Source: a phage. Taken from it: a stretch of DNA of 64,000 bases. Where the stretch lies: NCBI GenBank assembly GCA_012225525.1, contig GCA_012225525.1_3923.1; one strand, 5' to 3'. Below, in pieces: positions 4,170 through 49,291 of the stretch (position 1 is the stretch's first letter; the number at the start of each line of letters is the position of its first letter). Position numbers and translations under genes: made by a program. The notes below the pieces were generated by a model. That model saw only the letters and a list, made by a program, of their open reading frames with translations, ran no database searches and had not been told where the DNA came from.

Positions 4170-4900
4170 AAAACTGGAACCTTCGTTGTGGAAACACTCA
4201 AAAGCAACCTTACAGTAATGAGTATTGGGAATCTTTAAAATCTCAATCTCTGTGTATGCTTGAAGAAGCAAAAGAGCTTGTAAAAGCAATTGAAGAGAAA
4301 GACCCCATTGAGACATTGGATGCTCAGGCAGATTTGCAATATGTTCTTGACGGTTTGATTTACCTGTCACAACATGACCACAACGGTGCTATGGAAGCTG
4401 TTTGCCATAATAATGACCTGAAGTACACAGATGACTATGAAGAAGCTTTAAAACGTCTTGCAGACATTGAAAAGCGTACTGGTCAAGAGTGTATTATTCG
4501 AATGTCAGTGGTTGATGGTAAAGAGTGGTATGCGATTGTCCGTGCAGCCGATGGGAAGATTATGAAGCAATCAAATCTCCCTAAAGTACAGCTTGGTGAA
4601 TACATTGTAGAGCTTGAAAGCCAAGAACTTTTTGTGGTAGTATCTGAGACATGCGTTATCTGCAAAGGTATTGTAGGTAGCTTAAAGGATTTGGGTGTAG
4701 ATGGTTTTGTAGAAGTTAATCCAATTACCTCTAAAGCAGATAAAGACTTCTGTAAAGAGAATGGACTATGGATTGCAGATATTGTCTACTATGATGGTGA
4801 GCAGTTCCATGTAACCTCATACCCGAAACTGAATTATGATGCTAATAACCTGAAGTGCTGGTTAAAAGGGGTTGGTTATAATGGATTCACAGAACATTAA
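4145..4900 (+). CDS. hypothetical protein, possibly MazG-like NTP pyrophosphohydrolase N-terminal domain
   Basis: LEEAKELVKAIEEKDPIETLDAQADLQYVLDG resembles the all-alpha EExxE...D motif; weak. Confidence 0.3.
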   Translation: MFNSRESVKNWNLRCGNTQKQPYSNEYWESLKSQSLCMLEEAKELVKAIEEKDPIETLDAQADLQYVLDGLIYLSQHDHNGAMEAVCHNNDLKYTDDYEEALKRLADIEKRTGQECIIRMSVVDGKEWYAIVRAADGKIMKQSNLPKVQLGEYIVELESQELFVVVSETCVICKGIVGSLKDLGVDGFVEVNPITSKADKDFCKENGLWIADIVYYDGEQFHVTSYPKLNYDANNLKCWLKGVGYNGFTEH

Positions 4901-5204
4901 TAAAGAGGGTGTGGCTCAGAAGAGCCACTTCTCAAACTACAATATTTCTATGACGGTGTTTATGAATGACCCGTTACTTGAGAAGTATGGTGAGACTCCA
5001 GATACACTTCTGGATAATGAACAAGTTTTAAAAGCAGTCCTGTACAAATACGGGATTGACATTGAGAAAGAGTATTCTTTTGAAATCTGCCAACACAGGA
5101 ATACTTTCGGTAAAGTTGTGATGGCTCCGCTCTTTATGGGTGTAGAAAGGACTGACTATGGTTGGCTGTATCTGAAAAGAAACTTGGAGAAATACCGTGT
5201 TTAA
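4872..5204 (+). CDS. hypothetical protein
   Basis: Track ORF in co-directional gene array. Confidence 0.4.
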   Translation: MVIMDSQNINKEGVAQKSHFSNYNISMTVFMNDPLLEKYGETPDTLLDNEQVLKAVLYKYGIDIEKEYSFEICQHRNTFGKVVMAPLFMGVERTDYGWLYLKRNLEKYRV

Positions 5205-5532
5205 AGCAAAAAAGCTATCTTATGATGATATCATTTCTGGCGCTAAATTAGGTGTTGACAGTCTCGGACAAGACGTTAAACACGGAGACACAGTGATGTA
5301 CTGTGATGACCGAAGAGGAAGAAGTGCAATCTTGTTTGGAAAAGTTGTATGTAAAATACGCGGTAATTATGTTGTTTCAGATATGGATGTCAACGTCGCA
5401 CAAAAGCTCAAAACAATCATGGATAGCAAGATTTCATCATGGCTCTTAAATTGTATGCACGCATCGTCAATCACAAAGGTAAGTGATAAGTTTTACGATA
5501 TGTGGCAGAATGAGCAAATTTTCAAGATTTAA
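5197..5532 (+). CDS. hypothetical protein
   Basis: Track ORF; followed by hairpin terminator. Confidence 0.4.
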   Translation: MFKAKKLSYDDIISGAKLGVDSLGQDVKHGDTVMYCDDRRGRSAILFGKVVCKIRGNYVVSDMDVNVAQKLKTIMDSKISSWLLNCMHASSITKVSDKFYDMWQNEQIFKI

Positions 5533-9685: not shown

Positions 9686-11830
9686 ATGAACAAAGTGCAG
9701 ATTATTAAAAAGAATGGCTCACTCGAAGAACCTGATATCAAAAAAGTTTTAGCAGCAGTCACAAAGTCAGCTAATAGGGTTGGTTATAAAGAGCTTCCAC
9801 CAGATGTTACTCAAGCTCTTGAGTCAGCATTTATGAGGATTCTGGTAAAGTCCGCTAAGCAGAATAATTTGCTTATCTCGGTAAATGATATTCACAGTAT
9901 TGTTGAAGGTGCTTTGGCAGAAGTTAATCACGAGATTTATGAGTCTTACTCAACATATAGAAATTACCGTAAAGAAGTTGCTCAAAATTGGGATGAACTC
10001 TACCAGAAGACCAAAGATACACTCTTCTTAGGTGACAGAGAGAATGCTAACTTTGACAGCAGTTTAATTTCTACAAAAGGTTCAATTATTCGTGGTTATC
10101 TGACTAAAGAAATCTTTAAACAGTACCATTTAACACCAGAGGAACTTGAAGCCATTGAAAAAGGGTTTATCTATATCCATGATTTAAGAGACCTAATCTT
10201 TGGTGGTATCAACTGTTGCCTGTTTGACATTGGTAAAGTCCTGAAAGGTGGCTTTGAAATGTCTGGCATCGAATATTGTGAACCAAAGTCTGTGCTGTCG
10301 GCCTTACAGGTTATTGGTGACGTAGTTCTTTCAGCAACTGCACAGCAATTTGGTGGCTTTACTTTAGCAGAGATTGATAAGGTACTTGTACCGTATGCTA
10401 AGAAGTCTCTACGCTATCATGCTGAGAAAGCAGCATCTTATGGTATTCCTAAAGAACATTACCACAATTATGTCATGGAGCAGCTACAGATTGAACTAAC
10501 TCAAGGTTTCCAGTCACTTGAAATGAAACTAAATACCGTACCTTGTAGCCGTGGGGATTTTGCATTTACAACTTTGACATTCGGGTTACTTGACTCAGAT
10601 ATGTCTAATGAAGATAACCGACTGCAATATATGATTGCAAGTACTCTCCTAGATGTTCGTATGAATGGACAAGGTAAGAGCAAGAAACCTGTTGTATTCC
10701 CTAAACTGGTTTATATTTATGACCAGAAGAGACATAATGAGAATATCTGTCAAGGCCACCTGTACAGTAAAGCTATAGAGTGTTGCTCTAAAGCGATGTA
10801 TCCAGATTTCTTAAGTGTATCTGGTCATGGTGCTGTAGCAGAAGCTTTTGAGCGTTCTGGCAAGGTAATCTCGCCGATGGGTTGTAGAGCCTTCTTATCT
10901 CCATATCTTAACGAGGATGGGGAAGAGTTCTACGTTGGTCGTGCTAACATTGGTGCTGTATCTTTGAACTTACCAATGATTTACCAGTATTCTAAAGAGA
11001 ATGGTTTAGATTTCTGGAAAGAGCTTGATAAGTACCTAGAGATGATTCGCAGCTTCCACAAGAAACGCTACGAAATGATTGCTAATATGCCAGCAAGTTC
11101 TAACCCTCTTGCGTTCACACAAGGTGGTCTGTACAAAGGAACTAAGAAACCTACTGACAAGGTTGGTTGGGATATTGTGAAGTCCTTCACAGCTTCTTTT
11201 GGTGTTACTGCGCTTGATGAGTTGTCTGTTCTTGCTGAAGGTAAACGACTTCATGAAGTTGGAAGCTATAGTTTTGCATATGATGTTCTGGCATACATTA
11301 ACATGAAAACCGAAGAGTTTAAAAATGAAGATGACTTCTTATATGCCGTCTATGGTACTCCAGCAGAATCACTATGTGGGACTCAGCTAAAACAGTTCAG
11401 AGATATGTTTGGGGTTATCAAAGGTGTTTCCGATAAGGAATACTTTACAAATAGTTTCCATATGAATGTTGCAGCAGACATCTCACCATTTGAGAAGCAG
11501 GACTTAGAAGAGCCATTCTTCCATATCTGTAGAGGCGGTAGAATCCAGTATGTAAGAGTAGCTAACCCAGAAAACTTAACAGCACTTAAAAGTTGTATTA
11601 CAAGAGGTATGTTGAAAGGTTTCTATCAGGGACTTAACTTTGACTTAGCAATCTGTGAACATTGTGGTAACAGGCCAAAGGCTGATGTTGAAGAATGTGA
11701 AGTTTGTCACTCACATGATATCTCTGTGATTAACAGGGTGTGTGGGTATCTTGGATGGACTAAGATTAAAGGTGAATCCCGAATGAACGATGCAAAAATC
11801 GCTGAGATTCGTGACAGGGTTTCTATGTAA
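9686..11830 (+). CDS. nrdD: anaerobic ribonucleoside-triphosphate reductase (class III RNR)
   Basis: 714 aa; C-terminal Cys cluster and NRVCGYLG glycyl-radical motif. Confidence 0.9.
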   Translation: MNKVQIIKKNGSLEEPDIKKVLAAVTKSANRVGYKELPPDVTQALESAFMRILVKSAKQNNLLISVNDIHSIVEGALAEVNHEIYESYSTYRNYRKEVAQNWDELYQKTKDTLFLGDRENANFDSSLISTKGSIIRGYLTKEIFKQYHLTPEELEAIEKGFIYIHDLRDLIFGGINCCLFDIGKVLKGGFEMSGIEYCEPKSVLSALQVIGDVVLSATAQQFGGFTLAEIDKVLVPYAKKSLRYHAEKAASYGIPKEHYHNYVMEQLQIELTQGFQSLEMKLNTVPCSRGDFAFTTLTFGLLDSDMSNEDNRLQYMIASTLLDVRMNGQGKSKKPVVFPKLVYIYDQKRHNENICQGHLYSKAIECCSKAMYPDFLSVSGHGAVAEAFERSGKVISPMGCRAFLSPYLNEDGEEFYVGRANIGAVSLNLPMIYQYSKENGLDFWKELDKYLEMIRSFHKKRYEMIANMPASSNPLAFTQGGLYKGTKKPTDKVGWDIVKSFTASFGVTALDELSVLAEGKRLHEVGSYSFAYDVLAYINMKTEEFKNEDDFLYAVYGTPAESLCGTQLKQFRDMFGVIKGVSDKEYFTNSFHMNVAADISPFEKQDLEEPFFHICRGGRIQYVRVANPENLTALKSCITRGMLKGFYQGLNFDLAICEHCGNRPKADVEECEVCHSHDISVINRVCGYLGWTKIKGESRMNDAKIAEIRDRVSM

Positions 11831-14084: not shown

Positions 14085-14113
14085 AAGGGGACTGTAAAGG
14101 TTCCCTTTTTATT
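14085..14113 (+). terminator. probable intrinsic terminator
   Basis: Hairpin around GGGGACTGTAAAGGTTCCC followed by TTTTT; approximate coordinates. Confidence 0.4.
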
Positions 14114-14124
14114 TTGGAGGTAAA

Positions 14125-14640
14125 ATGTATCTGTCAAACCTGAAACGTTCGGTTGCAATGTCAGTTCTAAGACTCAGCTTTGATGAGCGTCAAGAGTTTA
14201 TAGACTCCCACAAATATGACCCTTCAAATTCTAATCACATGGTTCTTTGGAATCGTGGTAACTTACGTGAAAGAGCACTTGTCCGTTATTACCCACACTA
14301 CACAATAGATAACCTGTATGAATGGTGTGTTGTGAAGAACACCATTGCAACACTGAACAATCTTTGCAGGTATACGGGTAAGCAAATATTTACATTAGGT
14401 CATCACAAACCTGTTACAAAAGGTGGTGAGCATCACTGTGCAAACTGGTTTATCCAAACTAAAGCTGATAACCAGAAGCAAGGAGATAGCCTCCTAAGTA
14501 TCCCTAAGATGACCTATGAAGAGCAAGAGAAATATATCAAAAATAATATGCCAGATGTGCTTGACAACAACTATACAGATTTGGCAATATCTCTCCTGTT
14601 GAAGTTCGAGACAGTTTATAGGGCAACTTATAATGACTAA
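14125..14640 (+). CDS. HNH family endonuclease
   Basis: GHHKPVTKGGEHHCANWFIQTKADNQKQG fits HH...GG...N...N-x-x-K pattern. Confidence 0.5.
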   Translation: MYLSNLKRSVAMSVLRLSFDERQEFIDSHKYDPSNSNHMVLWNRGNLRERALVRYYPHYTIDNLYEWCVVKNTIATLNNLCRYTGKQIFTLGHHKPVTKGGEHHCANWFIQTKADNQKQGDSLLSIPKMTYEEQEKYIKNNMPDVLDNNYTDLAISLLLKFETVYRATYND

Positions 14641-14911
14641 AGAAAAGTGGGAGATTTTACCATTAGTCAGTGAAGGAGGTAATGGTTGTGAAATGTACAT
14701 GATACGTGGTCATGTTCCAGAGCCAATTGCACTTGAGATGGTAAACAACTTTACAGATGGTTCTTACAAAGACTTAGGCGAACCAACTGTCAAGCAACAA
14801 TGGGTTAAACCTGTACCAGACAGCACAGGTAACTGTAGTGTACTTTATCACGTTGTAGACCCTGCAAAATGCAAATCTGCAATGGCAGTAACAAACGTAA
14901 CTTTTGATTGA
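14633..14911 (+). CDS. hypothetical protein
   Basis: Track ORF. Confidence 0.35.
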   Translation: MTKEKWEILPLVSEGGNGCEMYMIRGHVPEPIALEMVNNFTDGSYKDLGEPTVKQQWVKPVPDSTGNCSVLYHVVDPAKCKSAMAVTNVTFD

Positions 14912-14922
14912 GAGAGAAAACT

Positions 14923-15804
14923 ATGAAAACATCTATCCGTGTTACAGTTCATTCACCAACTAAAGGGACTCATGAAGAAGAGTTTAACATCGTCCAATTC
15001 CCTTCTGGTGAGATTGGTGGACACTTTTCGCCAGAGTTTGTTGATTTTACTGCTTATGCAGCATCATCCATCAACAATGTGATTATGATTGTAAAAGGTT
15101 ATGACAAGGACACATTGTTTGCTGTGGCACTTGCTAAAGAAGCAATTGATGATTTAATTCCTCATGATTATGCTTTAAAGACTGTCATCTTTTACTACTT
15201 ACCAAATGCACGATATGACCGTCACATGTTTAAAGGTGACGCAGCAGCTTTAAAGGTTTTTGCTAAACAGATTAATGCAATGGGATTTGGCGCAGTCTGT
15301 GCAGTTGACCCTCACAGCTATGTACCAGATAACCTGTTTAACTGCTTCCAGAGTATTCCTCAAAAGGAGATTGCAGTCCACTATGCAAATGACCCACTGA
15401 TTGATTACTTAGTAGCCCCAGATGCAGGTGCTGCTAAGAAGATTGCAGAGACTGCTAAAGAGGTGGATAAACCATATATCACAATGTCTAAAGTACGCAA
15501 CCTTAAGACTGGTGAAATTACTGGTATGCGAATCCTTGATGATGTTGATTTGACAGATAAAACCGTCATGATTCTGGATGATATCTGTGATGGTGGTCGA
15601 ACCTTCATAGAAGCAGCTAAACATCTTCGTGAAGCAGGTGCAAAACGTGTGGAACTCTATGTAACACACGGTATCTTCTCTAAAGATGTTGAAAACCTTC
15701 TTGACAATGGCATTGACCACATCTACACTACAAACTCTTTAGGGGAAGCTAAAGACCGTGGCTTAACACATTATGGTCAAGTTACTGTAGCAAACCTTGA
15801 TTGA
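14923..15804 (+). CDS. ribose-phosphate pyrophosphokinase-like enzyme (Prs family)
   Basis: PRPP-binding-loop-like ILDDICDGGRTF and VAPDAGAAKK; ATG at 14923 (track ORF starts at TTG 14908). Confidence 0.8.
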   Translation: MKTSIRVTVHSPTKGTHEEEFNIVQFPSGEIGGHFSPEFVDFTAYAASSINNVIMIVKGYDKDTLFAVALAKEAIDDLIPHDYALKTVIFYYLPNARYDRHMFKGDAAALKVFAKQINAMGFGAVCAVDPHSYVPDNLFNCFQSIPQKEIAVHYANDPLIDYLVAPDAGAAKKIAETAKEVDKPYITMSKVRNLKTGEITGMRILDDVDLTDKTVMILDDICDGGRTFIEAAKHLREAGAKRVELYVTHGIFSKDVENLLDNGIDHIYTTNSLGEAKDRGLTHYGQVTVANLD

Positions 15805-15813
15805 AACTTTATA

Positions 15814-15834
15814 GGGGCTTAAAAGCCCCATTTT
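15814..15834 (+). terminator. intrinsic terminator hairpin
   Basis: GGGGCTT-AAA-AGCCCC followed by ATTTT. Confidence 0.55.
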
Positions 15835-15849
15835 GAGAGAGATTAAAAG

Positions 15850-17631
15850 ATGACTAAATCACTTTATGCAGTACCAGCAGGTTTAAACGCAGATGCTTAC
15901 AAATCTGGTCATGTTTACCAGTACCCTAGTGCAACAGAGTACTTGATGTTCAACCTGACACCACGTAGTGACAAATGGTTTAACAGCCCCTTAGCAATTG
16001 ATGGTGTAGTAGCTTTTGGTATTCAACGTTTCGTTAAAGATTACTTGATAGACCACTGGAACGCCACTTTCTTTGAACGTGATAAAAAAGAAGCCATTGA
16101 TGAAATCTTAGAAGTCATGAATGGTGTTCTGGGTAAAGATGCTATCGGTCGAGAGCATTGGGAAGCACTTCACGACTTAGGTTATCTACCAGTTGAAGTA
16201 TACGCTGTAGAAGAAGGTACAGTTGTTCCTATGCGTGTACCAATGATTGTCTTCCAGAACACTGTTTCAGGTTTCCATTGGGTAGCGGGGTATCTGGAAG
16301 ATGCTTTCTCTGCTGAGATTTGGAAGGCTTGTACCATTGCAACTATTGCATTGCATTATAAACGCATCTGTAAGAAGTGGGCTGACCTTACTTGCGACAA
16401 TGACTTACATTTGCCTTATCAGTGCCATGACTTTGCTATGCGTGGTATGTCCGGCTTTACTGATGACGCATTTAACGCTGTAGGCCACTTAACCAGCTTT
16501 AAAGGAACTGATAGCTTCCCTGCTGTGTATACGGCTAAACGAATCTATGGACAGTCTTACCCAATCTCTGATATTGGTAGCTCTGTACCAGCCACTGAGC
16601 ACTCTGTAATGTGTGCAAACATTGCTTGGGAAGGTGGTAATGATTTGGTTGAAGAAGAAAGACGCTTTAAAGGTGAGTTACAAACCTTCCGTCGTTTCTT
16701 AACAGAAACTTACCCAACTGGTATTGCAAGTGTTGTTTCAGACACTTATAACTTCTGGAGAACTGTGTCAGAAATCTTACCAGCACTTCGTAAAGAAATT
16801 ATGGAACGTGATGGCAAACTGGTAATTCGTCCTGACTCTGGAGACCCTGTACATATTGTCACAGGTTATAAAGCAATCCACTTAGAATGTGCTAAGAAGG
16901 CTTATTACGAGCACCTAATCAAGCTGGAAGCCAGTGACACAATGTTGAATGCTGTTCTGAACATGAAGCTTGAAAACATCAACTATGGTATTGCTGGATG
17001 GCTACTGTCAGAAGGCTACGAAATGGTTGTTGACAGAGAAGACTTTGAAGTTGCTGATACAGTGATGTTGAAAAACGCCTATATGGTTGGTTCTGCAAAC
17101 GTTGTAACACGTCCTGTAGCAGAGATTGATGGGGCCATTAAGACCTTGTATAACATCTTTGGAGGAACTATCAACTCTAAAGGGTTTAAGGTACTGGATG
17201 AGCACATTGGCCTTATCTATGGTGACTCTATCACGTTGGAACGTGCAAACGAAATCCTGAAGCGTTTGTATGAAATGGGTTTTGCAAGCTCTAACGTAGT
17301 GTTTGGTGTAGGTTCTTACACTTACCAGTACATGACTCGTGACACCTTTGCATTTGCTGTCAAAGCAACTCTTGCAAGCATTGGTGGTAAAGAGATTATG
17401 CTTGCAAAAGACCCTAAAACAGATAGCGGTATTAAGAAGTCTGCTTTTGGTGGTGTAGCCCCTATGTGGGATGGTGAGAATCTGAAAGCTGTAGATGGCT
17501 ATGGATTCCAGAGTTTTGCAGATGCACTTGAGCATCCAGCTTGTGCTTTACGTTTAGTCTTTAGCGACTCTGAGCAGTTCGGCTACACAACTCTTGGCGA
17601 TATTCGAAATAATATTGACAAGCAGCTTTAA
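15850..17631 (+). CDS. nicotinamide phosphoribosyltransferase-like enzyme (NAMPT family)
   Basis: 593 aa; N-terminal DAYKSGHVYQYP resembles NAMPT DSYK region; adjacent to Prs-like gene. Confidence 0.8.
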   Translation: MTKSLYAVPAGLNADAYKSGHVYQYPSATEYLMFNLTPRSDKWFNSPLAIDGVVAFGIQRFVKDYLIDHWNATFFERDKKEAIDEILEVMNGVLGKDAIGREHWEALHDLGYLPVEVYAVEEGTVVPMRVPMIVFQNTVSGFHWVAGYLEDAFSAEIWKACTIATIALHYKRICKKWADLTCDNDLHLPYQCHDFAMRGMSGFTDDAFNAVGHLTSFKGTDSFPAVYTAKRIYGQSYPISDIGSSVPATEHSVMCANIAWEGGNDLVEEERRFKGELQTFRRFLTETYPTGIASVVSDTYNFWRTVSEILPALRKEIMERDGKLVIRPDSGDPVHIVTGYKAIHLECAKKAYYEHLIKLEASDTMLNAVLNMKLENINYGIAGWLLSEGYEMVVDREDFEVADTVMLKNAYMVGSANVVTRPVAEIDGAIKTLYNIFGGTINSKGFKVLDEHIGLIYGDSITLERANEILKRLYEMGFASSNVVFGVGSYTYQYMTRDTFAFAVKATLASIGGKEIMLAKDPKTDSGIKKSAFGGVAPMWDGENLKAVDGYGFQSFADALEHPACALRLVFSDSEQFGYTTLGDIRNNIDKQL

Positions 17632-17645
17632 AAGTATATGATAAT

Positions 17646-17667
17646 AGGCTCCTACGGGAGCCTTTTT
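17646..17667 (+). terminator. intrinsic terminator hairpin
   Basis: AGGCTCC-TACG-GGAGCCT followed by TTTT. Confidence 0.6.
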
Positions 17668-17684
17668 AATTTCTGGAGAAAATT

Positions 17685-18020
17685 ATGAAAATCAAAGAGA
17701 TGAACATCAACATTGTCTTAGAAGAGCGTTGGGAGAACATCAAGAAGCCTGAAAATGGTCATAAGTTCCTCAACAAAATCTTAGTAGCAGCTAAAGAAGA
17801 ACTGACTGGGAAGATTGCAGCAGCAATCACAATAAAGGTGTGTGTAAAAGGTCTTCCAGACAATCACCAATTTGCACTTGACGAGTTTAAAGAAAGCTTC
17901 TACAATCCAAACAAACAGATGCTTGAAAGTAACTTTGCAGTATCTACAAGTATCGTCCATGACAGAAGCTTTATCCTTTACAAAAACATGAGAGGTGAGT
18001 CATGCAAGCATATTGGGTAG
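17685..18020 (+). CDS. hypothetical protein
   Basis: Track ORF. Confidence 0.4.
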   Translation: MKIKEMNINIVLEERWENIKKPENGHKFLNKILVAAKEELTGKIAAAITIKVCVKGLPDNHQFALDEFKESFYNPNKQMLESNFAVSTSIVHDRSFILYKNMRGESCKHIG

Positions 18021-18206: not shown

Positions 18207-20573
18207 ATGCGCATGGTAAATGACCACGCAGAAGTGATTAAGAGTTCAACTTCTTTAGAGACGTCTCAAGCACAGATTACAATGACACCTGAGATGTTCA
18301 GCCTTTTGAGTTCTGGTGTATATACCTTTAAAGAAAGGGCAGTGATTCGTGAACTGTCATGTAACGCAGTAGATGCTCAGAAAGAAGCTGGAAAAGAGAA
18401 CATCCCGTTCCATGTGCATTTACCTACTCGTTTTGAGCCTTACTTTGAAGTTCGTGATTTTGGAACTGGATTGACTCATGATAAAGTTATGAGTTTGTAC
18501 CTAAACTACGGGGCTTCTACGAAGAATGACTCTAATGACTACATTGGTGCAATGGGTATCGGCTCAAAATCCCCATTTGCAATTGCTCAGTCATTCACAG
18601 TATCTAGCTATGTTGATGGTGTTGTTAATAAGTACTCTGTTTATCTTGAGAATGGTATCCCTCAAGTAACTAAGCTGACCACTAACCCAACAAAAGAACC
18701 TAATGGTTTAGCTGTACGTGTGGCAGTTGCTGACCACCGTATCTCAAAGTTCTTTGAAGAAGCTGGAAATGTGTACTCATACTTCACTGTAAAACCAGAA
18801 AGTAATATTGAGTACGACGATGTATTAGCAGATATGAACGTCATTGCCCGTGAAGAAGGTGTTTATGATGCCATGATTCATAAGCAAAGCTGGCGTTCTA
18901 GTGGTAATAGGACAGAGTTTAATGTGGTGATGGGTAATATTGCCTATCCAGTGAACATGGAAGCATTACTTGGTGATGATTTCTTCAAAGTCTTGCCAGA
19001 GTTTTTCCGTAGGAGCGTAGACCTTGTAAACATCTACATGCCTATTGGTTCAGTTGCTATAGCCGCTTCTCGTGAAGCATTGCAGATGAATGATACGACA
19101 AAAAATGTTATCATCGAGGCTACCAAAAAGATAACTGAAGCAATTACAAAGGATGTTATCAAGAAAGTTAATAGCCAACCTACACTGATGGATGCTGCAC
19201 AGGCTTATGCAGAGTTACGTTTGAACTCACGAGAGATGTTTAATGCTGTGTGTCCAAAGCTAGAGTGGGGAGGCGTTAAGCTTGATTCTCTGGAAGAAGA
19301 ATTGTTAAACATTCGTCGTGGAATTATCTACGCAGAAGACGGCTCAGTCATTTATGAACGTGACGGTAAAGGCAATATTAAGGTTGATAGGAACGGGAAT
19401 AATATCCCTAAAGTAGATTATCTTTATAACCCAGTTGCTTATGTCAAGTTCAACTCTTTAGAGAGTAAGATTCGTGCAACAGCACTTTCCTACACTCAAG
19501 AGGCAAGTATGTTCAATATCTTTGGTGCAATGCGTAAAAGCCAAATTGAACAGTTTTTGTTCGTGATTAATGACCGTCGCAATAAAAACGGTACTGAGAA
19601 GACTGTAGGACGCAATCAAATCTTGCGTGGTGCATGTCGAGACTACGCTAACGAGTCAAGTCTGTTCCACAGATACAATGGTATTGTGTTTGTATTCTCG
19701 ACTGAGAAAGAGCTAGATGACTTAATCAATCTGCACAAACTTGATAAAAGCTTGTTAAAGATTGTGAAGATGTCTGATAAGGAACATCACTATCAGCGTA
19801 AAGAAGCTGTAAGAGGTGTTGTAAAACTCTGGAAAGCTGTTCCAGCAGAAGGTGTAGCTTCCTATAAAGAGGTTTCAGAGGACTTTGATACAATTGAAGA
19901 ACCTCAGCTTTACATTAAGGCAGTTGGTGACACAGTTGATGGCGAATGTTTTTGCTCATCTCCAGAAGATGTGGCTAAGTCAGTTGCTAATGTTATAGGG
20001 AAGACAGTCTATGTTTTCCGAAAAGCAAATTGGAAAAAGATACCAGAAGACTGGATTGAAGTAGATGAGAAGCTCTTGAACGACAGCTTAACTGATGTTC
20101 ATTGGATTAATCATAACAGGTATATGACACGCATCTACATGAATGGTGTTCTTGACCTTACAAGCAGTTGGATTATTGCCAGAAACTTTACATTCAATAA
20201 CAGGAAGATTTCTCGTGGCTATTGCTATTCACGAGATACTAGCAAAACTATCTTCCTAGAAGGTAATGAAGAGGCTGTAGAGGCTATGTTCGGTAAAATC
20301 CAGTATGTTGCTGCACCGTTTGCATACACTTACACTATTAGCAGATTGCAAACTTTGAAAGAATGCCTTGACAATGATACAAAGCTTTACAAGAAAATTA
20401 AGAAAGCTGGTGACCGTATGGTTATTAAGGTGACAAACTACCTTTCAAAAAGAAAACAAGAAAACTTCTTGCTTTCTCATTTAGATTGGAATAAAGTGTC
20501 ACCCATCGAAGTGAGTAAGTTCTTAGGCTTTGATGTGAAGTGTGTTCCAGAAGGAACTACAGTTTACGATTAA
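18207..20573 (+). CDS. GHKL-superfamily (HSP90/MORC/GyrB-like) ATPase domain protein, 788 aa
   Basis: N-box ELSCNAVDA, G1 box VRDFGTGLT, G2 box GAMGIGSKSPF in the N-terminal 130 aa. Confidence 0.55.
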   Translation: MRMVNDHAEVIKSSTSLETSQAQITMTPEMFSLLSSGVYTFKERAVIRELSCNAVDAQKEAGKENIPFHVHLPTRFEPYFEVRDFGTGLTHDKVMSLYLNYGASTKNDSNDYIGAMGIGSKSPFAIAQSFTVSSYVDGVVNKYSVYLENGIPQVTKLTTNPTKEPNGLAVRVAVADHRISKFFEEAGNVYSYFTVKPESNIEYDDVLADMNVIAREEGVYDAMIHKQSWRSSGNRTEFNVVMGNIAYPVNMEALLGDDFFKVLPEFFRRSVDLVNIYMPIGSVAIAASREALQMNDTTKNVIIEATKKITEAITKDVIKKVNSQPTLMDAAQAYAELRLNSREMFNAVCPKLEWGGVKLDSLEEELLNIRRGIIYAEDGSVIYERDGKGNIKVDRNGNNIPKVDYLYNPVAYVKFNSLESKIRATALSYTQEASMFNIFGAMRKSQIEQFLFVINDRRNKNGTEKTVGRNQILRGACRDYANESSLFHRYNGIVFVFSTEKELDDLINLHKLDKSLLKIVKMSDKEHHYQRKEAVRGVVKLWKAVPAEGVASYKEVSEDFDTIEEPQLYIKAVGDTVDGECFCSSPEDVAKSVANVIGKTVYVFRKANWKKIPEDWIEVDEKLLNDSLTDVHWINHNRYMTRIYMNGVLDLTSSWIIARNFTFNNRKISRGYCYSRDTSKTIFLEGNEEAVEAMFGKIQYVAAPFAYTYTISRLQTLKECLDNDTKLYKKIKKAGDRMVIKVTNYLSKRKQENFLLSHLDWNKVSPIEVSKFLGFDVKCVPEGTTVYD

Positions 20574-44211: not shown

Positions 44212-44288
44212 CTCTGTTTAGCTCAGCTTGGTAGAGCGTTCCGTTTGGGGCGGTAAGGCCGGAGGTTCAAGTCCTCCAACAGAGACCA
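44212..44288 (+). tRNA. tRNA-Pro (anticodon TGG)
   Basis: Manual cloverleaf; T-arm GGAGG-TTCAAGT-CCTCC; CCA encoded. Confidence 0.7.
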
Positions 44289-44295
44289 AATTAAT

Positions 44296-44373
44296 GTTCC
44301 AGTAGACAAAATGGTAAAGTCACCACTCTTTCAAAGTGGATATCTGAGGGTTCAAATCCCTTCTGGAACGCCA
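44296..44373 (+). tRNA. tRNA-Glu (anticodon TTC)
   Basis: Acceptor GTTCCAG/CTGGAAC; anticodon loop CTTTCAA. Confidence 0.7.
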
Positions 44374-44463
44374 GTTTTGACAGAAGACCAATTACAGCAA
44401 ACTTAATCTACTCATCTGAAAGTTAATCGGACAAAGAAGATATTTGGTCTGGTCATTAAGAAT

Positions 44464-44540
44464 TGCGGGTATAGAGAAAGGGCGTCTCACATGTCTCATT
44501 AGCATGGTATCGGCAGGTTCGACTCCTGCACCCGCCTCCA
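44464..44540 (+). tRNA. tRNA-like element, anticodon arm unresolved
   Basis: Perfect T-arm GCAGG-TTCGACT-CCTGC and CCA end; internal GTCTCA duplication. Confidence 0.3.
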
Positions 44541-44623
44541 AATTTACAGAAGACCGTTTACAGCAATATTTATTAAATTTTTAGCGGAAAAATTGAAAGA
44601 TACGGTCTGGTAATACTAAACAT

Positions 44624-44700
44624 GGTTAGGAAGCACATAAGGTATGTGCGGTCGCCTGTTAAGCGAATGGCACAGGGTTCGAATCCCTGACTAACCGCCA
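44624..44700 (+). tRNA. tRNA-Asn (anticodon GTT)
   Basis: Anticodon loop CTGTTAA; T-arm CAGGG-TTCGAAT-CCCTG. Confidence 0.7.
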
Positions 44701-44769
44701 AATTTAGGAGAGAAGCGATTGCTCACCGATTTGTAAGGTGCAAGTCCTTAGCCTGAATAGAAATCAAAT

Positions 44770-44857
44770 GTGTCGTTATCCCGTAGATGGTAGCGGTGGG
44801 GACTGTAAATCCCTTGTCATTGAGACTCGGTAGGTTCGACTCCTACACGGCACACCA
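44770..44857 (+). tRNA. tRNA-Tyr (anticodon GTA), long variable arm
   Basis: Anticodon loop CTGTAAA; 88 nt. Confidence 0.7.
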
Positions 44858-44863
44858 AATAAA

Positions 44864-44941
44864 GGTTATGTAGTTTAATCTGGTTAAAATACTCCCCTGT
44901 CACGGGAGATGATGAGGGTTCAAATCCCTTCATAACCGCCA
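44864..44941 (+). tRNA. tRNA-Asp (anticodon GTC)
   Basis: Acceptor GGTTATG/CATAACC; anticodon stem-loop CTCCC-CTGTCAC-GGGAG. Confidence 0.75.
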
Positions 44942-45370
44942 ATTTTGAGAGGGCTATTTAGCCCCTCCCTTAAAGAGTTCTTACGAGTATTCTTTAAAGG
45001 AGCAGAAGACCAAATACAGCAAGAATGTATGAAATTTCAAGCCAATTCAATTTTGAAAATTTAAAACTTGGTCTGGCTCAACAAATTTACAGAAGACCGT
45101 TTACAGCAAAACTTAAACAATCTATTTCTCCGGTAAAGAAAAGGCGAAGGTTCGATTCCTTCACTCGGCAGATGTCGAGTTGGTGTAATGGTAGCACTTA
45201 AGATGATAAACAACGGTCTGGTAATTATCTTTGTAGATAAGTTATTAAGCTTACCTGTGAGTATGCGACCACAAAGGGTGAAAGGGTAAATTCTAGATTT
45301 AAACCCAAAAAGGCACATCGCTACAGACCTTAAGCAAGTCTGGGTAGCTTATCTACAAAGATAATTTAAT

Positions 45371-45446
45371 GGAAGTGTAGCAGAATGGTGATGCGGCAGA
45401 CTTTTAATCTGACAGGCGATGGGTTCGAATCCCTCCACTTCTACCA
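45371..45446 (+). tRNA. tRNA-Lys (anticodon TTT)
   Basis: Anticodon loop CTTTTAA; T-loop TTCGAAT. Confidence 0.65.
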
Positions 45447-45524
45447 AATTCACCCTTAACTGAGAAACACCTGCGCGGCTGGAAACACCCACTCAACAGT
45501 TTCTCTAACTAGGGTACTTATTCT

Positions 45525-45601
45525 GGTTCAGTCGCAGATAAGGTAATGCAAGGGTCTCATAAGCCCTATGAATGTGGGTTCGATTCCCATCTGAACCTCC
45601 A
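45525..45601 (+). tRNA. tRNA-Met or Ile2 (anticodon CAT)
   Basis: Acceptor GGTTCAG/CTGAACC; anticodon loop CTCATAA. Confidence 0.7.
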
Positions 45602-45602
45602 A

Positions 45603-45678
45603 GCTGGTATAGTTAAGAAGGTTATAACACTCCCCTGATAAGGGAACATCGGTGGTTCGATTCCACCTACCAGTACCA
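45603..45678 (+). tRNA. tRNA-Ile (anticodon GAT)
   Basis: Anticodon loop CTGATAA; T-arm GGTGG-TTCGATT-CCACC. Confidence 0.7.
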
Positions 45679-45693
45679 ATTTCAATAAAGTTG

Positions 45694-45722
45694 TTGACAT
45701 TGAGATGTGACTACTTTATAGT
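45694..45722 (+). promoter_or_regulatory. sigma70-like promoter inside tRNA array
   Basis: TTGACA-17-TATAGT. Confidence 0.5.
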
Positions 45723-45924
45723 AACCTTAGTTTTCGTTGCGTAGCGTCTATTTTGCAAATTTAAAATAAATGCAAACGACAATGTTTTTCTGGCAGTAGC
45801 TTGATAGGCTAAACACCAGTGAGGTCTTCCAATCCCTCATCAAAGAATTTGGCGTACTCGCCCACGGTATGATTAATAAGGTGGGCATCTTTAAGGGCTT
45901 TCTAAGAGAGTCTTTAAAGATAAT

Positions 45925-46001
45925 GCACCCTTAGTTCAATTGGATAGAGCAACGGTCTTCTAAATCGTTAGTTACAGGTTCGAATCCTGTAGGGTGTACC
46001 A
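45925..46001 (+). tRNA. tRNA-Arg (anticodon TCT)
   Basis: Anticodon loop CTTCTAA; T-arm ACAGG-TTCGAAT-CCTGT. Confidence 0.7.
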
Positions 46002-46143
46002 AATAGTTAGCAGATTACTTAGACGGCCTTAGCGGGTCTTCCTGTAGGGAGGTGGTCTGTATCTCATGTTTTCCAGAACATGTAAATAATCTGAGAAGAA
46101 GCTTGACAGTGTTGAGATAACAGGGTAAGCTTCGAATTATAAT

Positions 46144-46226
46144 ATGGGACGATGTTAAGACTCTAAGGCATGAGCAACGGCCTCCAAAACCGTTTCAAAG
46201 GGGTTCAACTCCTCCGTCCCATGCCA
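46144..46226 (+). tRNA. tRNA, probably Trp (anticodon CCA), atypically long D region
   Basis: Perfect acceptor ATGGGAC/GTCCCAT, CCA end, candidate loop CTCCAAA; 83 nt. Confidence 0.4.
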
Positions 46227-46239
46227 AAGTCTTATTAGG

Positions 46240-46327
46240 GGTAGGTAGCGGCTAATGGCAGCCAAACAGTCTTGAAAACTGTTGCCACTGTAGAGATACG
46301 GTGAGGGTTCGACTCCTTTACTTACCG
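46240..46327 (+). tRNA. tRNA-Ser (anticodon TGA), long variable arm
   Basis: Anticodon stem-loop ACAGT-CTTGAAA-ACTGT. Confidence 0.7.
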
Positions 46328-46483
46328 CCTAATAAGATTTACTCCGTCCATGCTTGTTCGCATTGTCGGTTTATCCCTCGTGTATTGTCGTACACTGTCA
46401 AAGCACCTAGTAGGTGTCACGGAGAAGAGATAATATCAAGCTCTCCAAAGGTTCTAGTCACCGGATTAAACAAGACTATGCAA

Positions 46484-46503
46484 AGACCTATTTAGGTCTT
46501 TTT
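46484..46503 (+). terminator. intrinsic terminator within tRNA region
   Basis: AGACCT-ATTT-AGGTCT followed by TTTT. Confidence 0.5.
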
Positions 46504-46582
46504 AGAGGGCTTCTAAGGTTATTACAGCTTGTTGTGGAACCTTGTTGCTTAGGTTCTTAGAAGTTCTCTAAAAAGATTTAAT

Positions 46583-46660
46583 GGGAGATTGACGGTAATT
46601 GGTAAACCTACCATCCTTAGAAGTTGGTGTTTGAGGGTTCGAATCCCTTGTCTCCCACCA
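46583..46660 (+). tRNA. tRNA with anticodon TAG (Leu-type) but short variable loop
   Basis: Anticodon loop CTTAGAA; discriminator A; 5-nt variable loop. Confidence 0.55.
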
Positions 46661-46667
46661 AATTAAT

Positions 46668-46743
46668 GCAGGTGTAGCAAAATGGTTATGCGGCTGACTC
46701 TTAATCAGTAAGACGATGGGTTCAATTCCCTCCACCTGTACCA
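46668..46743 (+). tRNA. tRNA-Lys (anticodon CTT)
   Basis: Anticodon loop CTCTTAA. Confidence 0.65.
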
Positions 46744-46749
46744 AACAAT

Positions 46750-46825
46750 GGGGTCATAGTTTATATGGTTAAAATTCGAGTTTTGCAAACTTGGGAACTG
46801 AGTTCAATTCTCAGTGACTCCACCA
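46750..46825 (+). tRNA. tRNA-Ala (anticodon TGC)
   Basis: Anticodon loop TTTGCAA; T-arm CTGAG-TTCAATT-CTCAG. Confidence 0.7.
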
Positions 46826-46831
46826 ATTAGT

Positions 46832-46906
46832 GCATCCATAGTTTAAACGGGAAAATTACAGTCTTCCAAACTGAGGTTGAGGGTTCGATTCCCTCTGGAT
46901 GCTCCA
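46832..46906 (+). tRNA. tRNA-Gly (anticodon TCC)
   Basis: Acceptor GCATCCA/TGGATGC; anticodon loop CTTCCAA. Confidence 0.7.
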
Positions 46907-46913
46907 AATTAAT

Positions 46914-46989
46914 GCTCCTATCGTATAATTGGCTATTACGGTTGCCTTGTAAGTAACTTATCAGGGTTCGAATCCTTGTGGGAGCACCA
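46914..46989 (+). tRNA. tRNA-Thr (anticodon TGT)
   Basis: Anticodon stem-loop GTTGC-CTTGTAA-GTAAC. Confidence 0.7.
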
Positions 46990-47085
46990 ATTTAGAGGTC
47001 AAGTGAAAGACCGCTTTGAGTCAACTGAAGACCGTAACAAATCCCACGGAGTTGAGTTAGCGGAACAACTTCAGACCTCTTTCAT
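46990..47085 (+). ncRNA. candidate structured spacer RNA
   Basis: Closing inverted repeat AGAGGTC...GACCTCT enclosing TGAAGACCGTAACAAATCC. Confidence 0.3.
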
Positions 47086-47160
47086 ACTCGCTTAGTTTAT
47101 ATGGTAAAACATCACCCTTACAAGATGAAGAAAAAGGTTCAAGTCCTTTAGTGAGTACCA
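47086..47160 (+). tRNA. tRNA-Val (anticodon TAC)
   Basis: Anticodon loop CTTACAA; T-arm AAAGG-TTCAAGT-CCTTT. Confidence 0.6.
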
Positions 47161-47161
47161 T

Positions 47162-47239
47162 GTTCCAGTATCCCAATTGGCAGAGGATGCAAGCTCAAAC
47201 CTTGTACTAGTGACGGTTCGAATCCGTCTTGGAACACCA
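47162..47239 (+). tRNA. tRNA with anticodon CAA (Leu-type) but short variable loop
   Basis: Anticodon stem-loop GCAAG-CTCAAAC-CTTGT; 6-nt variable loop; discriminator A. Confidence 0.55.
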
Positions 47240-47255
47240 ATTTTAGGAGAACACT

Positions 47256-47363
47256 ATGAGTAATAAATCAATTGCAAAAAAGTTTATAGCGTCATTCAAA
47301 AACAGGCGTAAAAACAACTCTTGTGAAAAACTGTATGGTGTTCTTGTAGGTAAGCAGGATTAG
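47256..47363 (+). CDS. very small ORF (35 aa) with strong RBS inside tRNA array
   Basis: TAGGAGAACACTATG; stop overlaps 5' end of the next tRNA. Confidence 0.2.
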   Translation: MSNKSIAKKFIASFKNRRKNNSCEKLYGVLVGKQD

Positions 47364-47429
47364 TTCAAATGGATAGAGCAACAGTCTACGAAGCTGTTAA
47401 TAGGGGTTCGAATCCCTTATCCTGCGCCA
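47354..47429 (+). tRNA. tRNA-Arg (anticodon ACG)
   Basis: Perfect acceptor GCAGGAT/ATCCTGC; anticodon loop CTACGAA. Confidence 0.7.
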
Positions 47430-47448
47430 ATTTAAAGAGGCTATTTAA

Positions 47449-48006
47449 ATGAGATACTTGAAGTATGCTTCATGGATTTTCTTAGCTTTGCTAGAGCCAT
47501 TGGCAGCAATCTTAGCAGTTATCTTAGCACCTTTTGTAGTTCCATTTTACAGTGAGAAGAAAGGACACTTACCTTTTGGATTCAGATGGATGGAGACATA
47601 TGACAACCCGATTGATGGTGATGAAGGTCACGTTAAAAGATGGGCTAAGATTAGAAAGATTGGTAAGCTTGGTGTCTATTTGCAGAGAGTTGGATGGCTC
47701 TGGAGAAACAAAGCTTATAACTTCTCTTACCATGTGTTAGGAAGAGATGTAAAAGATGTTACTAAGTGGAAAGGCAATATCAACGTAAGTTCTGACCCTG
47801 AAGATAATCAGACAGGTTATCTCCTAATGTGGAACAGTAATGCTTGGGGATTATTCGCTTTTATCCCATCAATTAAAGTCTTTGGTAAACAATTCTACTG
47901 GAGAATTTATGTTGGATGGAAGCTAAAAAGTGTTGTCCCAGAAGAAAGAGCATTCTCAAGGGAAAGAGTTATGTTGGCATTCTTTATTCATCCACTGAGA
48001 AAGTAA
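47449..48006 (+). CDS. membrane protein embedded in tRNA array
   Basis: 185 aa; N-terminal hydrophobic segments. Confidence 0.5.
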   Translation: MRYLKYASWIFLALLEPLAAILAVILAPFVVPFYSEKKGHLPFGFRWMETYDNPIDGDEGHVKRWAKIRKIGKLGVYLQRVGWLWRNKAYNFSYHVLGRDVKDVTKWKGNINVSSDPEDNQTGYLLMWNSNAWGLFAFIPSIKVFGKQFYWRIYVGWKLKSVVPEERAFSRERVMLAFFIHPLRK

Positions 48007-48014
48007 AGATTTAA

Positions 48015-48090
48015 AGGGGATTAGTTTACAAGGTTAAAACCTCGGTCTTTGAAATCGAAGAAGTTGGTTCAATTCCAACATCCCCCGCCA
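48015..48090 (+). tRNA. tRNA-Gln (anticodon TTG)
   Basis: Anticodon stem-loop TCGGT-CTTTGAA-ATCGA; T-arm GTTGG-TTCAATT-CCAAC. Confidence 0.65.
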
Positions 48091-48092
48091 AT

Positions 48093-48171
48093 GCTCCATT
48101 ACTCCAATTGGCAGAGAGGCCAGACTTAAAATCTGTGTTATGTATCGGTTCGAATCCGATATGGAGTACCA
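48093..48171 (+). tRNA. tRNA with anticodon TAA (Leu-type) but short variable loop
   Basis: Anticodon loop CTTAAAA; 7-nt variable loop; discriminator A. Confidence 0.55.
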
Positions 48172-48176
48172 AATTT

Positions 48177-48252
48177 AGCGGTATAGCATAACTGGCAATG
48201 CAGCAGTCTCTGAAGCTGTCTTATTAAGGTTCAAATCCTTATGCCGCTGCCA
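48177..48252 (+). tRNA. tRNA-Gln (anticodon CTG)
   Basis: Anticodon loop CTCTGAA; T-arm TAAGG-TTCAAAT-CCTTA. Confidence 0.65.
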
Positions 48253-48283
48253 CTTCTAAGGATTCTTACGAGAGTCCTTAAAT

Positions 48284-48359
48284 GTGGCCTTATCATAAAT
48301 GGTAATGACCCATGCTGTGAACATGGTCTATACGGGTTCAAATCCCGTAGGTCACCCCA
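48284..48359 (+). tRNA. tRNA-His (anticodon GTG)
   Basis: Anticodon stem-loop CCATG-CTGTGAA-CATGG. Confidence 0.7.
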
Positions 48360-48364
48360 ATTTA

Positions 48365-48439
48365 TAGTCCAAGTAGCTTATATGGTTAAAGCGCGTGTCT
48401 GAAAAACATGAGAAGAGGGTTCAAATCCCACTGGACTAC
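48365..48439 (+). tRNA. tRNA-Phe (anticodon GAA), CCA not encoded
   Basis: Acceptor TAGTCCA/TGGACTA; anticodon loop CTGAAAA. Confidence 0.65.
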
Positions 48440-48457
48440 CAATTTCAAAGGTGCTTA

Positions 48458-49192
48458 ATGAAAGAGATGACAGAACAAGGTAAGGAGATTTTTAATCTCT
48501 TAAAAACTGGTAAAGGGTTTTCTAACCCCCTTATTACTGGTGCAGCAGTTCTCGGTGGAACCGTAGCTGCCTCTACATCACTTGTAAGCTCTATTAGTTC
48601 TGTATCAGACCCTACAGTAAAGGATAAGCTTGTTGCTGCTGGACTTACAACAGTTCTGCTTAACAGCTTTACCACGAGTCTGACAAGCACTACATCAACT
48701 ACCAAAACACTGACAGATTACGGTCAAAAGTCCATTGATGAGTTTTCATCACGTATGCAGGTAGCAAAAGGTTATTCTAATGTTATGGGTGCAGCAGGTG
48801 AACAAGTTGGCTGTACACCATTTAGTGGTATTATGGGTGTTGCTACAGAGTATGGTCAAAAAGCTATTGATATGATTAACAGTGCACTAGACGGTGTTAA
48901 TGATGTATTAAGTGACTTACAAGACGCTATTGACAAAGGTCTTGATACTATTTCTGATTTAGCTAACCAAGCTGTTAGTAAGATTAATGAAGGTATCTCG
49001 AAGATTACAGCTTATGCAGATGAAGTTGTGCAGATGATTGAAGAAGAAGCTGCCCTTATTGCAGAGTACCTTAAAACGAATATCAATGGGTTCTTAGCAG
49101 GTATCTTACCAGACTGGTTTGATGATGCTTGTAAAACTGGTGTAATTGACACTATTGCAACACCAGAAATGAAGAACGCATTACAGAAATAA
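48458..49192 (+). CDS. Ser/Thr-rich hypothetical protein
   Basis: ATG 48458 after AAAGG; track start 48395 lies inside tRNA-Phe. Confidence 0.5.
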   Translation: MKEMTEQGKEIFNLLKTGKGFSNPLITGAAVLGGTVAASTSLVSSISSVSDPTVKDKLVAAGLTTVLLNSFTTSLTSTTSTTKTLTDYGQKSIDEFSSRMQVAKGYSNVMGAAGEQVGCTPFSGIMGVATEYGQKAIDMINSALDGVNDVLSDLQDAIDKGLDTISDLANQAVSKINEGISKITAYADEVVQMIEEEAALIAEYLKTNINGFLAGILPDWFDDACKTGVIDTIATPEMKNALQK

Positions 49193-49194
49193 AT

Positions 49195-49287: not shown

Positions 49288-49291
49288 ATTT

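Follow-up and report, generated by a model that had tools for sequence, protein, structure and literature searches.

Two adjacent genes in the window analysed here (a stretch of 64,000 nucleotides of phage DNA, contig GCA_012225525.1_3923.1 of assembly GCA_012225525.1) raise the question of whether the phage uses a Prs-like and a NAMPT-like enzyme for ordinary NAD salvage, or to rebuild NAD+ that the defence systems of its host have destroyed. A preliminary description had placed a Prs-like protein at 14923-15804 and a 593-aa NAMPT-like protein at 15850-17631, had proposed that they form an NAD+ reconstitution (counter-defence) module, with salvage as the alternative, and had suggested profile and structure comparisons of both proteins. 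Both open reading frames (ORF A and ORF B) are present at those positions and have the expected profile matches, and the motif ILDDICDGGRTF is present in ORF A. The whole window is a Felixounavirus (Felix O1-like) genome, which has 96-98% nucleotide identity to phages HY02, wV8 and XTG1 and is collinear with XTG1. The locus is, with a probability of about 0.9, the NARP1 (NAD+ reconstitution pathway 1) operon of this Felixounavirus. The features of the locus are:

14085..14107, + strand: terminator-like hairpin and T-run (terminator scan; 9-bp stem, TTTATTTT tail)
14125..14640, + strand: 171-aa ORF with a weak HNH-like motif, GHHKPVTKGGEHHCANWFIQ (phrog_3500, 1.7e-92; equivalent to Bas63 gp77)
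14633..14911, + strand: 92-aa ORF (phrog_4726, 9e-60; equivalent to Bas63 gp78)
14923..15804, + strand: ORF A, predicted from homology as Adps, ADP-ribose pyrophosphate synthetase (Prs-like), 293 aa
14923..15420, + strand: mosaic (recombinant) segment over the N-terminal domain of Adps, from nucleotide identity to Bas63
15814..15829, + strand: 6-bp G+C hairpin GGGGCT-taaa-AGCCCC followed by ATTTT, in the Adps-Namat spacer (read from the sequence)
15850..17631, + strand: ORF B, predicted from homology as Namat, nicotinamide ADP-ribose transferase (NAMPT-like), 593 aa
15958..15999, + strand: selectivity-clamp loop (SCL) of Namat, aa 37-50, TPRSDKWFNSPLAI, with K42-W43 (alignment to SPbetaL1 R40)
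16867..17130, + strand: Ounavirinae-type insertion in Namat, aa 340-427, 77-88 aa, in the loop after the strand bearing R327 and D329
17311..17343, + strand: selectivity-clamp helix (SCH) signature of Namat, GSYTYQYMTRD, aa 488-498
17646..17663, + strand: intrinsic-terminator-like hairpin AGGCTCC-tacg-GGAGCCT followed by TTTTT, closing the unit (terminator scan)

NARP1 was defined on genes 79-80 of phage Bas63 (JohannRWettstein, MZ501086). Deletion of these two genes sensitised Bas63 to SIR2-HerA, with a drop in plaques of about 20-fold and a fall in NAD+; an ion of ADPR-pyrophosphate (ADPR-PP; m/z 720.010) appeared in Bas63-infected cells only with the operon; and the operon was effective in hosts lacking pncC and nadR [Osterman et al. 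2024, bioRxiv 10.1101/2024.02.11.579819]. In the proposed mechanism, a host defence NADase (SIR2-HerA, DSR1/2, type I Thoeris, SEFIR or similar) would split NAD+ into ADP-ribose and nicotinamide. Adps would then transfer the beta-gamma pyrophosphate of ATP to the terminal ribose of ADP-ribose, yielding ADPR-PP, and Namat would exchange the pyrophosphate of ADPR-PP for nicotinamide, giving NAD+ directly, with no need for NMN or for the NadR and PncC of the host.

Bas63 belongs to the same genus, and its pair has the same position (in both phages between nrdG and rIIA), the same gene lengths (882 and 1782 nt) and no alignment gaps relative to the pair in the window. The Namat proteins are 98% identical (Bas63 gp80), and the long insertion and the two clamp elements are common to both. 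By alignment and gene order, genes 79-80 of Bas63 and the window pair are positional orthologues. Two differences are a 114-aa gene (gp81) that follows Namat in Bas63 but is absent from the window, and the N-terminal domain of Adps, for which the two phages have different alleles. Enzyme activities in vitro have been shown for the homologues of SPbetaL1, ICP1, DyoEdafos and P. foliorum; this chemistry comes from homologues that are 32-47% identical, because purification of the Bas63 proteins failed. By analogy, it is very probable that the allele pair in the window has the same activities as these characterised homologues. Chance matches are of no concern: the E-values are extremely small, and over 250 phage records share the conserved pair. 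In addition, a Namat-type neighbour is present for 97% of Adps-clade genes.

ORF A matches Pribosyltran and Pribosyl_synth (Pfam) and phrog_619 (4e-97), and its closest solved structures, among PDB entries that include no Adps, are archaeal and human Prs. It passes the broad subfamily model TIGR01251 only narrowly (122.6 bits against a cutoff of 113), and it falls far below every NCBIfam Prs equivalog cutoff (at best 104 bits against 296). The Adps proteins of Bas63 (gp79), ICP1 and SPbetaL1 share 78%, 33% and 32% identity with it, and E. coli Prs shares 24%. The Adps of the Vibrio phage ICP1 has an apo crystal structure and substrate- and product-bound cryo-EM structures [PMC13586617], and the determinants of Adps were mapped onto the window protein by alignment to the ICP1 sequence from GenBank. 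K190 aligns with the catalytic beta-hairpin lysine (SPbetaL1 K162, ICP1 K185), and R97, H131, D167, D219 and D220 match the acceptor-site residues R87, H121, D161, D212 and D213 of ICP1 [for the roles of these residues, see PMC13586617; bioRxiv 10.1101/2024.02.11.579819]. Of these, K190, H131, D167, D219 and D220 are counterparts of residues that have been shown to be essential. The PP loop motif DDICDG is conserved (C222-T227 lie in this loop), the full loop reading DDICDGGRTF in the window, DDICDGAASF in ICP1 (where residues 218-220 are AAS rather than GRT) and DDMIDTGGTL in E. coli Prs. Like ICP1 Adps, the window protein has a short C-terminus that, in the alignment, is devoid of the alpha11-12 helices (the regulatory module) of Prs; it ends earlier than E. 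coli Prs, with no counterpart of the AEAIRRISNEESISAMFE segment. In ICP1 Adps, F18 and F92 make aromatic contacts to the adenine of ADPR [PMC13586617]. The window protein retains an aromatic residue as F26, whereas Phe92 is replaced by Met102, which is also Met in Bas63 and falls in a gap in SPbetaL1. On these scores, identities and aligned residues, ORF A groups with the characterised Adps proteins and not with bona fide Prs.

The start of ORF A was placed at ATG 14923 on the basis of the position of the ribosome-binding site (a GAGAGAG purine run lies 6 nt before the ATG) and because Bas63, XTG1 and Michonne have the same annotated start. On these grounds TTG 14908, which is in frame and would add five codons, was rejected; this TTG also overlaps the stop codon of the preceding ORF.

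ORF B matches NAPRTase (PF04095, 8e-35), NF006629 (469 bits) and phrog_448 (4.5e-202), and is 47% identical to SPbetaL1 Namat. The SPbetaL1 Adps and Namat have been characterised biochemically, and crystal structures of the Namat are available [9w5w and 9w5x; PMC12774641]. These two structures are the best solved matches to ORF B by sequence (7e-128), and also the best fold matches to its AF2 model (pLDDT 93; target TM 0.95). The two-gene order, the catalytic Lys, the nicotinamide pocket and a GSX-phi-X-phi-X-phi-TRD motif are common to SPbetaL1 and the window. The core residues D15, Y17, F195, R198, D221, A248, H251, R327 (R306 in SPbetaL1) and D329 are conserved in the alignment. The SCH signature carries Y490 and Y494, and reads GGALLQKVDRD at the same position in Xanthomonas Nampt and GAQTYQRNTRD in H. 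ducreyi NadV. As aligned, ORF B carries a clamp motif of the Namat type and not of the Nampt type, with the caveat that 496-aa enterobacterial chromosomal homologues, which may be either Namat or Nampt and possibly bacterial NARP1 copies, bear the motif as well (as GSYTYQYNTRD). In the SCL, the stacking residue is Arg40 in SPbetaL1, whereas the window Namat has Lys42-Trp43, as does that of Bas63, whose fourth SCL residue has been modelled as stacking on adenine [PMC12774641].

How much of this would also be expected from ordinary salvage? In that case, the Prs-like protein would make PRPP from ribose-5-phosphate, the NAMPT-like protein would make NMN from this PRPP and nicotinamide, and host NadR or PncC would finish NAD+, raising NAD or nucleotide pools for replication. 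Canonical Prs and Nampt/NadV, as well as NARP2 (Nampt and Nmnat, as in KVP40), share their superfamilies and folds with the window pair. At the family level the pair does match Prs and NAPRTase/NAMPT, every GenBank relative carries the annotation Prs and nicotinamide phosphoribosyltransferase, and the pair adjoins a cluster of nrd genes (nrdA/B/D/G). What separates the pathways is the substrate: the acceptor of NARP1 is ADP-ribose rather than ribose-5-phosphate, and the donor is ADPR-PP rather than PRPP. On this point the window proteins, with ORF A scoring so far beneath the Prs equivalog cutoffs and ORF B having a Namat-type clamp, side with NARP1, as do the published experiments. With the Bas63 orthologues, SIR2-HerA was overcome even in a host mutated in both pncC and nadR; formation of ADPR-PP depended on the operon; purified SPbetaL1 Adps yielded no product in the reported assay of the Prs reaction; and Namat offered both donors produced NAD+ only. 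SPbetaL1 Namat is able to form NMN from PRPP in vitro, and a salvage side activity of the window Namat is conceivable, since Namat homologues keep some of this activity in vitro. As the main function of the pair, salvage is very unlikely. For NARP2, no Nmnat lies beside the window pair, and the regions of XTG1 and Bas63 that were viewed have no annotated Nmnat or NadR. Thus, the proposal of a counter-defence module is supported by the orthology to Bas63 and by the predicted determinants of Adps and Namat.

The part of the operon which differs most from Bas63 is the N-terminal domain of Adps. Within 14923..15420 the window and Bas63 share 61-82% of their nucleotides, against 92-98% on either flank, and the patch has 56 non-synonymous codon differences. 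The proteins are 66% identical over residues 1-165 and 94% identical over residues 166-293. There are two classes of Adps allele among the records of Ounavirinae phages, of which the window type is the commoner (some 155 records reach at least 90% identity, and 94 lie at 60-80%). It could be argued that the replaced domain gave the window Adps an altered acceptor specificity or a lower activity, making its operon unlike that of Bas63; the acceptor might be a modified ADP-ribose, e.g. ADPR-1''-phosphate or a cyclic ADPR product. The sharp patch does fall on the domain where the adenine end of ADPR is bound, and both allele classes have been maintained. Against this, the mapped contact and catalytic residues are all alike in the two alleles, the reaction centre lies within the conserved C-terminal domain, and the greater abundance of the window-type allele argues for a working gene. 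A functional departure from Bas63 is extremely improbable, and the mosaic domain, as it appears from the alignments, is a minor new detail of a NARP1 operon.

The Namat of the window was described as about 100 aa longer than usual, suggesting an insertion or extra domain. Its 593 aa compare with 491 aa in SPbetaL1 and 488 aa in ICP1. The stretches without a counterpart in SPbetaL1 Namat are aa 47-50 (4 aa of the SCL), a 15-aa insert at 258-275 and, as the main part, aa 340-427 (77 aa), which is confidently predicted to be a small folded alpha/beta subdomain. A search for fold relatives of this subdomain detected none. The length of the loop at the insertion site ranges from 20 to 103 aa across the family, and the insertion is not discussed in the NARP1 literature searched. 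It is doubtful that this subdomain of about 85 aa is a functional add-on and not neutral decoration; if it were, possible roles include channelling of the labile ADPR-PP through docking of Adps, allosteric regulation, or a shield against a host anti-NARP1 factor. Perhaps the recombinant N-terminal domain of Adps reflects the same arms race.

Other NARP1 loci share the core pair and have additional genes: NARP1-AP (Adps-Adpp-Namat), in which Adpp is a Macro-domain ADPR-1''-phosphatase, and loci that contain RyDEP. No Macro-domain Adpp or RyR-domain RyDEP was found in several ORFs on either side of the window pair (Pfam at E <= 1, and PHROGs), which is a minor new detail. Without such a gene, following the published logic, the operon should neither counter aRES-type defence nor convert cADPR signals.

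NARP1 has already been characterised, and the lineage of the window operon is that of the published type example; the identification is correct but not new, leaves current understanding unchanged and has its significance mostly in annotation. More than 250 Felix O1-like records still label the pair "ribose-phosphate pyrophosphokinase" and "nicotinamide phosphoribosyltransferase", and a literature search pairing Felixounavirus with NARP1 gave no match, the link being visible only via the phage name Bas63. Several of these records belong to phages that are candidates for therapy or biocontrol against E. coli O157 and Salmonella. To regard the pair as a counter-defence system predicts resistance to NAD+ depletion of the SIR2, DSR, Thoeris and SEFIR types, and with no Macro phosphatase the phage would be expected to be sensitive to defence of the aRES type. 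For enzymologists, the subdomain of Namat and the pair of Adps alleles pose small questions.

The pair appears to belong to a longer transcription unit, flanked by terminator-like hairpins, of which that at 14085..14107 is probably, as inferred from its structure, the upstream limit. In the Mooglevirus Michonne, terminators are annotated at positions equivalent to both flanking hairpins. The 171-aa ORF, which has a weak match to the HNH family phrog_2214 (7.5e-06) and nothing above cutoff in a Pfam search, apparently shares this unit and would be a candidate member of the pathway at most. Upstream of its Adps gene, Hafnia phage SarahDanielle encodes a homologue of this ORF with 34% identity. 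The latter phage also has two extra genes between Adps and Namat, neither of which has a Pfam assignment. The 92-aa ORF, without a match in a Pfam search, has a stop codon that overlaps the ribosome-binding region of Adps, and a gene of equal length precedes Adps in Michonne. Adps and Namat are separated by 45 nt, and the hairpin in this spacer, which the terminator scan missed because its T-run is too short, is possibly an attenuator or an RNA-stability element.

The neighbouring Prs-like and NAMPT-like genes had been put forward in the preliminary description as a candidate NAD+ reconstitution module. Both were confirmed in position, + strand orientation and the occurrence of ILDDICDGGRTF in the first. 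They are referred to here as Adps (ADP-ribose pyrophosphate synthetase) and Namat (nicotinamide ADP-ribose transferase), the two enzymes of NAD+ reconstitution pathway 1 (NARP1), in which ADPR and ATP give ADPR-PP, and ADPR-PP and nicotinamide give NAD+.

Features of the Adps-Namat region (window coordinates)
14085-14107: terminator-like hairpin, probable upstream end of a four-ORF unit
14125-14640, + strand: 171-aa ORF with motif GHHKPVTKGGEHHCANWFIQ and weak HNH similarity
14633-14911, + strand: 92-aa ORF, between the 171-aa ORF and Adps
14923-15804, + strand: ORF A (Adps), 293 aa, containing ILDDICDGGRTF
14923-15420, + strand: N-terminal mosaic patch of Adps, a sharp identity drop against Bas63
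15814-15829: 6-bp G+C hairpin GGGGCT-taaa-AGCCCC, then ATTTT, in the Adps-Namat spacer
15850-17631, + strand: ORF B (Namat), 593 aa, 45 nt after ORF A
16867-17130, + strand: large Namat insertion (aa 340-427), an alpha/beta subdomain in the predicted structure
17646-17663: terminator-like hairpin, downstream end of the four-ORF unit

The ATG at 14923, which follows a GAGAGAG run and is the annotated start in three relatives, was preferred for Adps to the TTG at 14908; that codon, at which the range given in the preliminary description starts, shares bases with the stop codon of the ORF upstream. In Pfam, ORF A hits the phosphoribosyltransferase and Prs-associated domains, and among the PHROGs phrog_619. 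Its score of 122.6 bits clears the cutoff of 113 for TIGR01251, the broad model of the Prs subfamily, and all Prs equivalog models leave it well short of their cutoffs. ORF B matches PF04095, NF006629 (469 bits) and phrog_448.

The preprint defining NARP1 (bioRxiv 10.1101/2024.02.11.579819) began with genes 79-80 of the BASEL phage Bas63 (JohannRWettstein; MZ501086, genus Felixounavirus), which are 882 and 1782 nt long and lie between nrdG and rIIA, the same position as the window pair. Gap-free alignments give 78% identity between ORF A and gp79, and 98% between ORF B and gp80. In that work, deletion of the operon lowered plating on SIR2-HerA about 20-fold and left NAD+ depleted there, ADPR-pyrophosphate was seen only when the defence system and the operon were present together, and host pncC and nadR were not required. 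As the Bas63 proteins purified poorly, the reactions were demonstrated with SPbetaL1 homologues; later, the Adps reaction was demonstrated with ICP1 Adps (PMC13586617), and the enzyme reactions also with P. foliorum and DyoEdafos proteins. The window operon, being the orthologue of this published type example, is already known.

The residues on which the two reactions depend were located by alignment, for ORF A with ICP1 Adps, SPbetaL1 Adps and E. coli Prs. K190 is the catalytic lysine (ICP1 K185, SPbetaL1 K162); ICP1 R87, H121, D161, D212 and D213 correspond to R97, H131, D167, D219 and D220, and F18 to F26, while F92 aligns to M102, also Met in Bas63. In the PP loop, ORF A has DDICDGGRTF where ICP1 has DDICDGAASF and E. 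coli Prs has DDMIDTGGTL, and its C-terminus is without the segment forming the Prs regulatory helices. In Namat, the nicotinamide-pocket and ribose-binding residues of SPbetaL1 are conserved (D15, Y17, F195, R198, D221, A248, H251, R327, D329), and K42-W43 stands in the clamp loop, as it does in Bas63. The helix signature published as specific to Namat, GSX-phi-X-phi-X-phi-TRD (PMC12774641), appears as GSYTYQYMTRD, with aromatic Y490 and Y494; the same site reads GGALLQKVDRD in Xanthomonas Nampt and GAQTYQRNTRD in H. ducreyi NadV. For an AlphaFold2 model (pLDDT 93.3, pTM 0.92), the closest matches are the solved structures of Namat (target TM 0.95), followed by NadV and then by mammalian NAMPT. 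The pair could also be read as serving plain NAD salvage, but orthology to gp79-80, position and the conserved determinants of both enzymes support NARP1 activity, as judged from sequence, and make plain salvage unlikely.

The Namat-type motif, in the form GS[YF]TYQYNTRD, also occurs in three 496-aa homologues on Erwinia, Klebsiella and Cronobacter chromosomes (P0069, P0074, P0084) that are annotated 'nicotinate phosphoribosyltransferase'. One possibility is that these are copies of NARP1 in bacteria; another is that the motif is not as specific as the published work has it.

The suggestion that the NAMPT-like protein is about 100 aa longer than usual through an insertion or extra domain held: it has 593 residues against 491 in SPbetaL1 Namat, with extra residues at aa 47-50, 258-275 (15 aa) and 340-427 (77 aa). 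The 77-aa insert, placed after the RPDSGDP active-site strand bearing R327 and D329, forms a small subdomain of four short strands plus four or five helices in high-confidence predictions of both the whole protein and the insert by itself. Searches of PDB and BFVD gave no fold relative, and the Namat structure paper (PMC12774641) does not discuss it. Every homologue on an Ounavirinae-like contig of 85-92 kb has the insert, down to 46% identity, and it is compatible with NARP1 function, since Bas63 Namat carries it too. The insertion site is a hot spot of length variation (20-103 aa across the family), and a second, unrelated insert type of about 100 aa (TPHG...NRYDKQYY) occurs in homologues P0094, P0097 and P0106.

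Nucleotide identity to Bas63 is 61-82% across 14901-15400 and 92-98% on both flanks; correspondingly, Adps is 66% identical in its N-terminal 165 residues and 94% in the remainder. Both allele classes are common in Ounavirinae records (about 155 with at least 90% identity to the window type, 94 with 60-80%), and all mapped functional residues are identical in the window and Bas63 alleles. The patch is best read as an allelic replacement by recombination.

The four + strand ORFs between the terminator-like hairpins apparently place the 171-aa and 92-aa ORFs in the same transcription unit as Adps. Mooglevirus Michonne is annotated with the same four-ORF and hairpin layout, and Hafnia phage SarahDanielle has a homologue of the 171-aa protein (34% identity) upstream of Adps. 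The spacer hairpin could be a partial terminator or RNA-stability element setting the Adps:Namat ratio. Other phages have Macro (Adpp) or RyR (RyDEP) accessory genes in the Adps-Namat gap; scanned ORFs flanking the window pair include no Macro-domain phosphatase or RyR-domain glycosidase, so the operon is a plain two-enzyme NARP1. SarahDanielle, a distant member of the Ounavirinae, has two genes of 128 and 125 aa in this gap (4498-4884 and 4968-5345 of its locus, L009); they have no Pfam assignment and are candidate new NARP1 accessory genes. Bas63 differs from the window in having an extra 114-aa gene, gp81 (phrog_20372), directly 3' of Namat, in the region 19456-19858 of its locus, L004; the gene is absent from the window at 17632-17700. 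In typing phage 1, LF82P2 and JLBYU32 the match downstream of Namat is about 350 bp longer, which may be gp81.

Nucleotide identity between the region and the Felix O1-like myophages HY02, wV8, SP22 and XTG1 is 96-98%, XTG1 being collinear with the window nearly base for base, and matches to 227 phage records span 80% or more of the region. The pair lies downstream of an nrdA/nrdB/nrdD/nrdG cluster and upstream of rIIA/rIIB. The window nrdD (9686-11830) is a single unbroken 714-aa ORF; in the annotation of Bas63 it is joined from two pieces and encloses a homing endonuclease gene, bas63_0068. A + strand array of 26 tRNA genes at 44212-49367 is typical of Felix O1-like phages.
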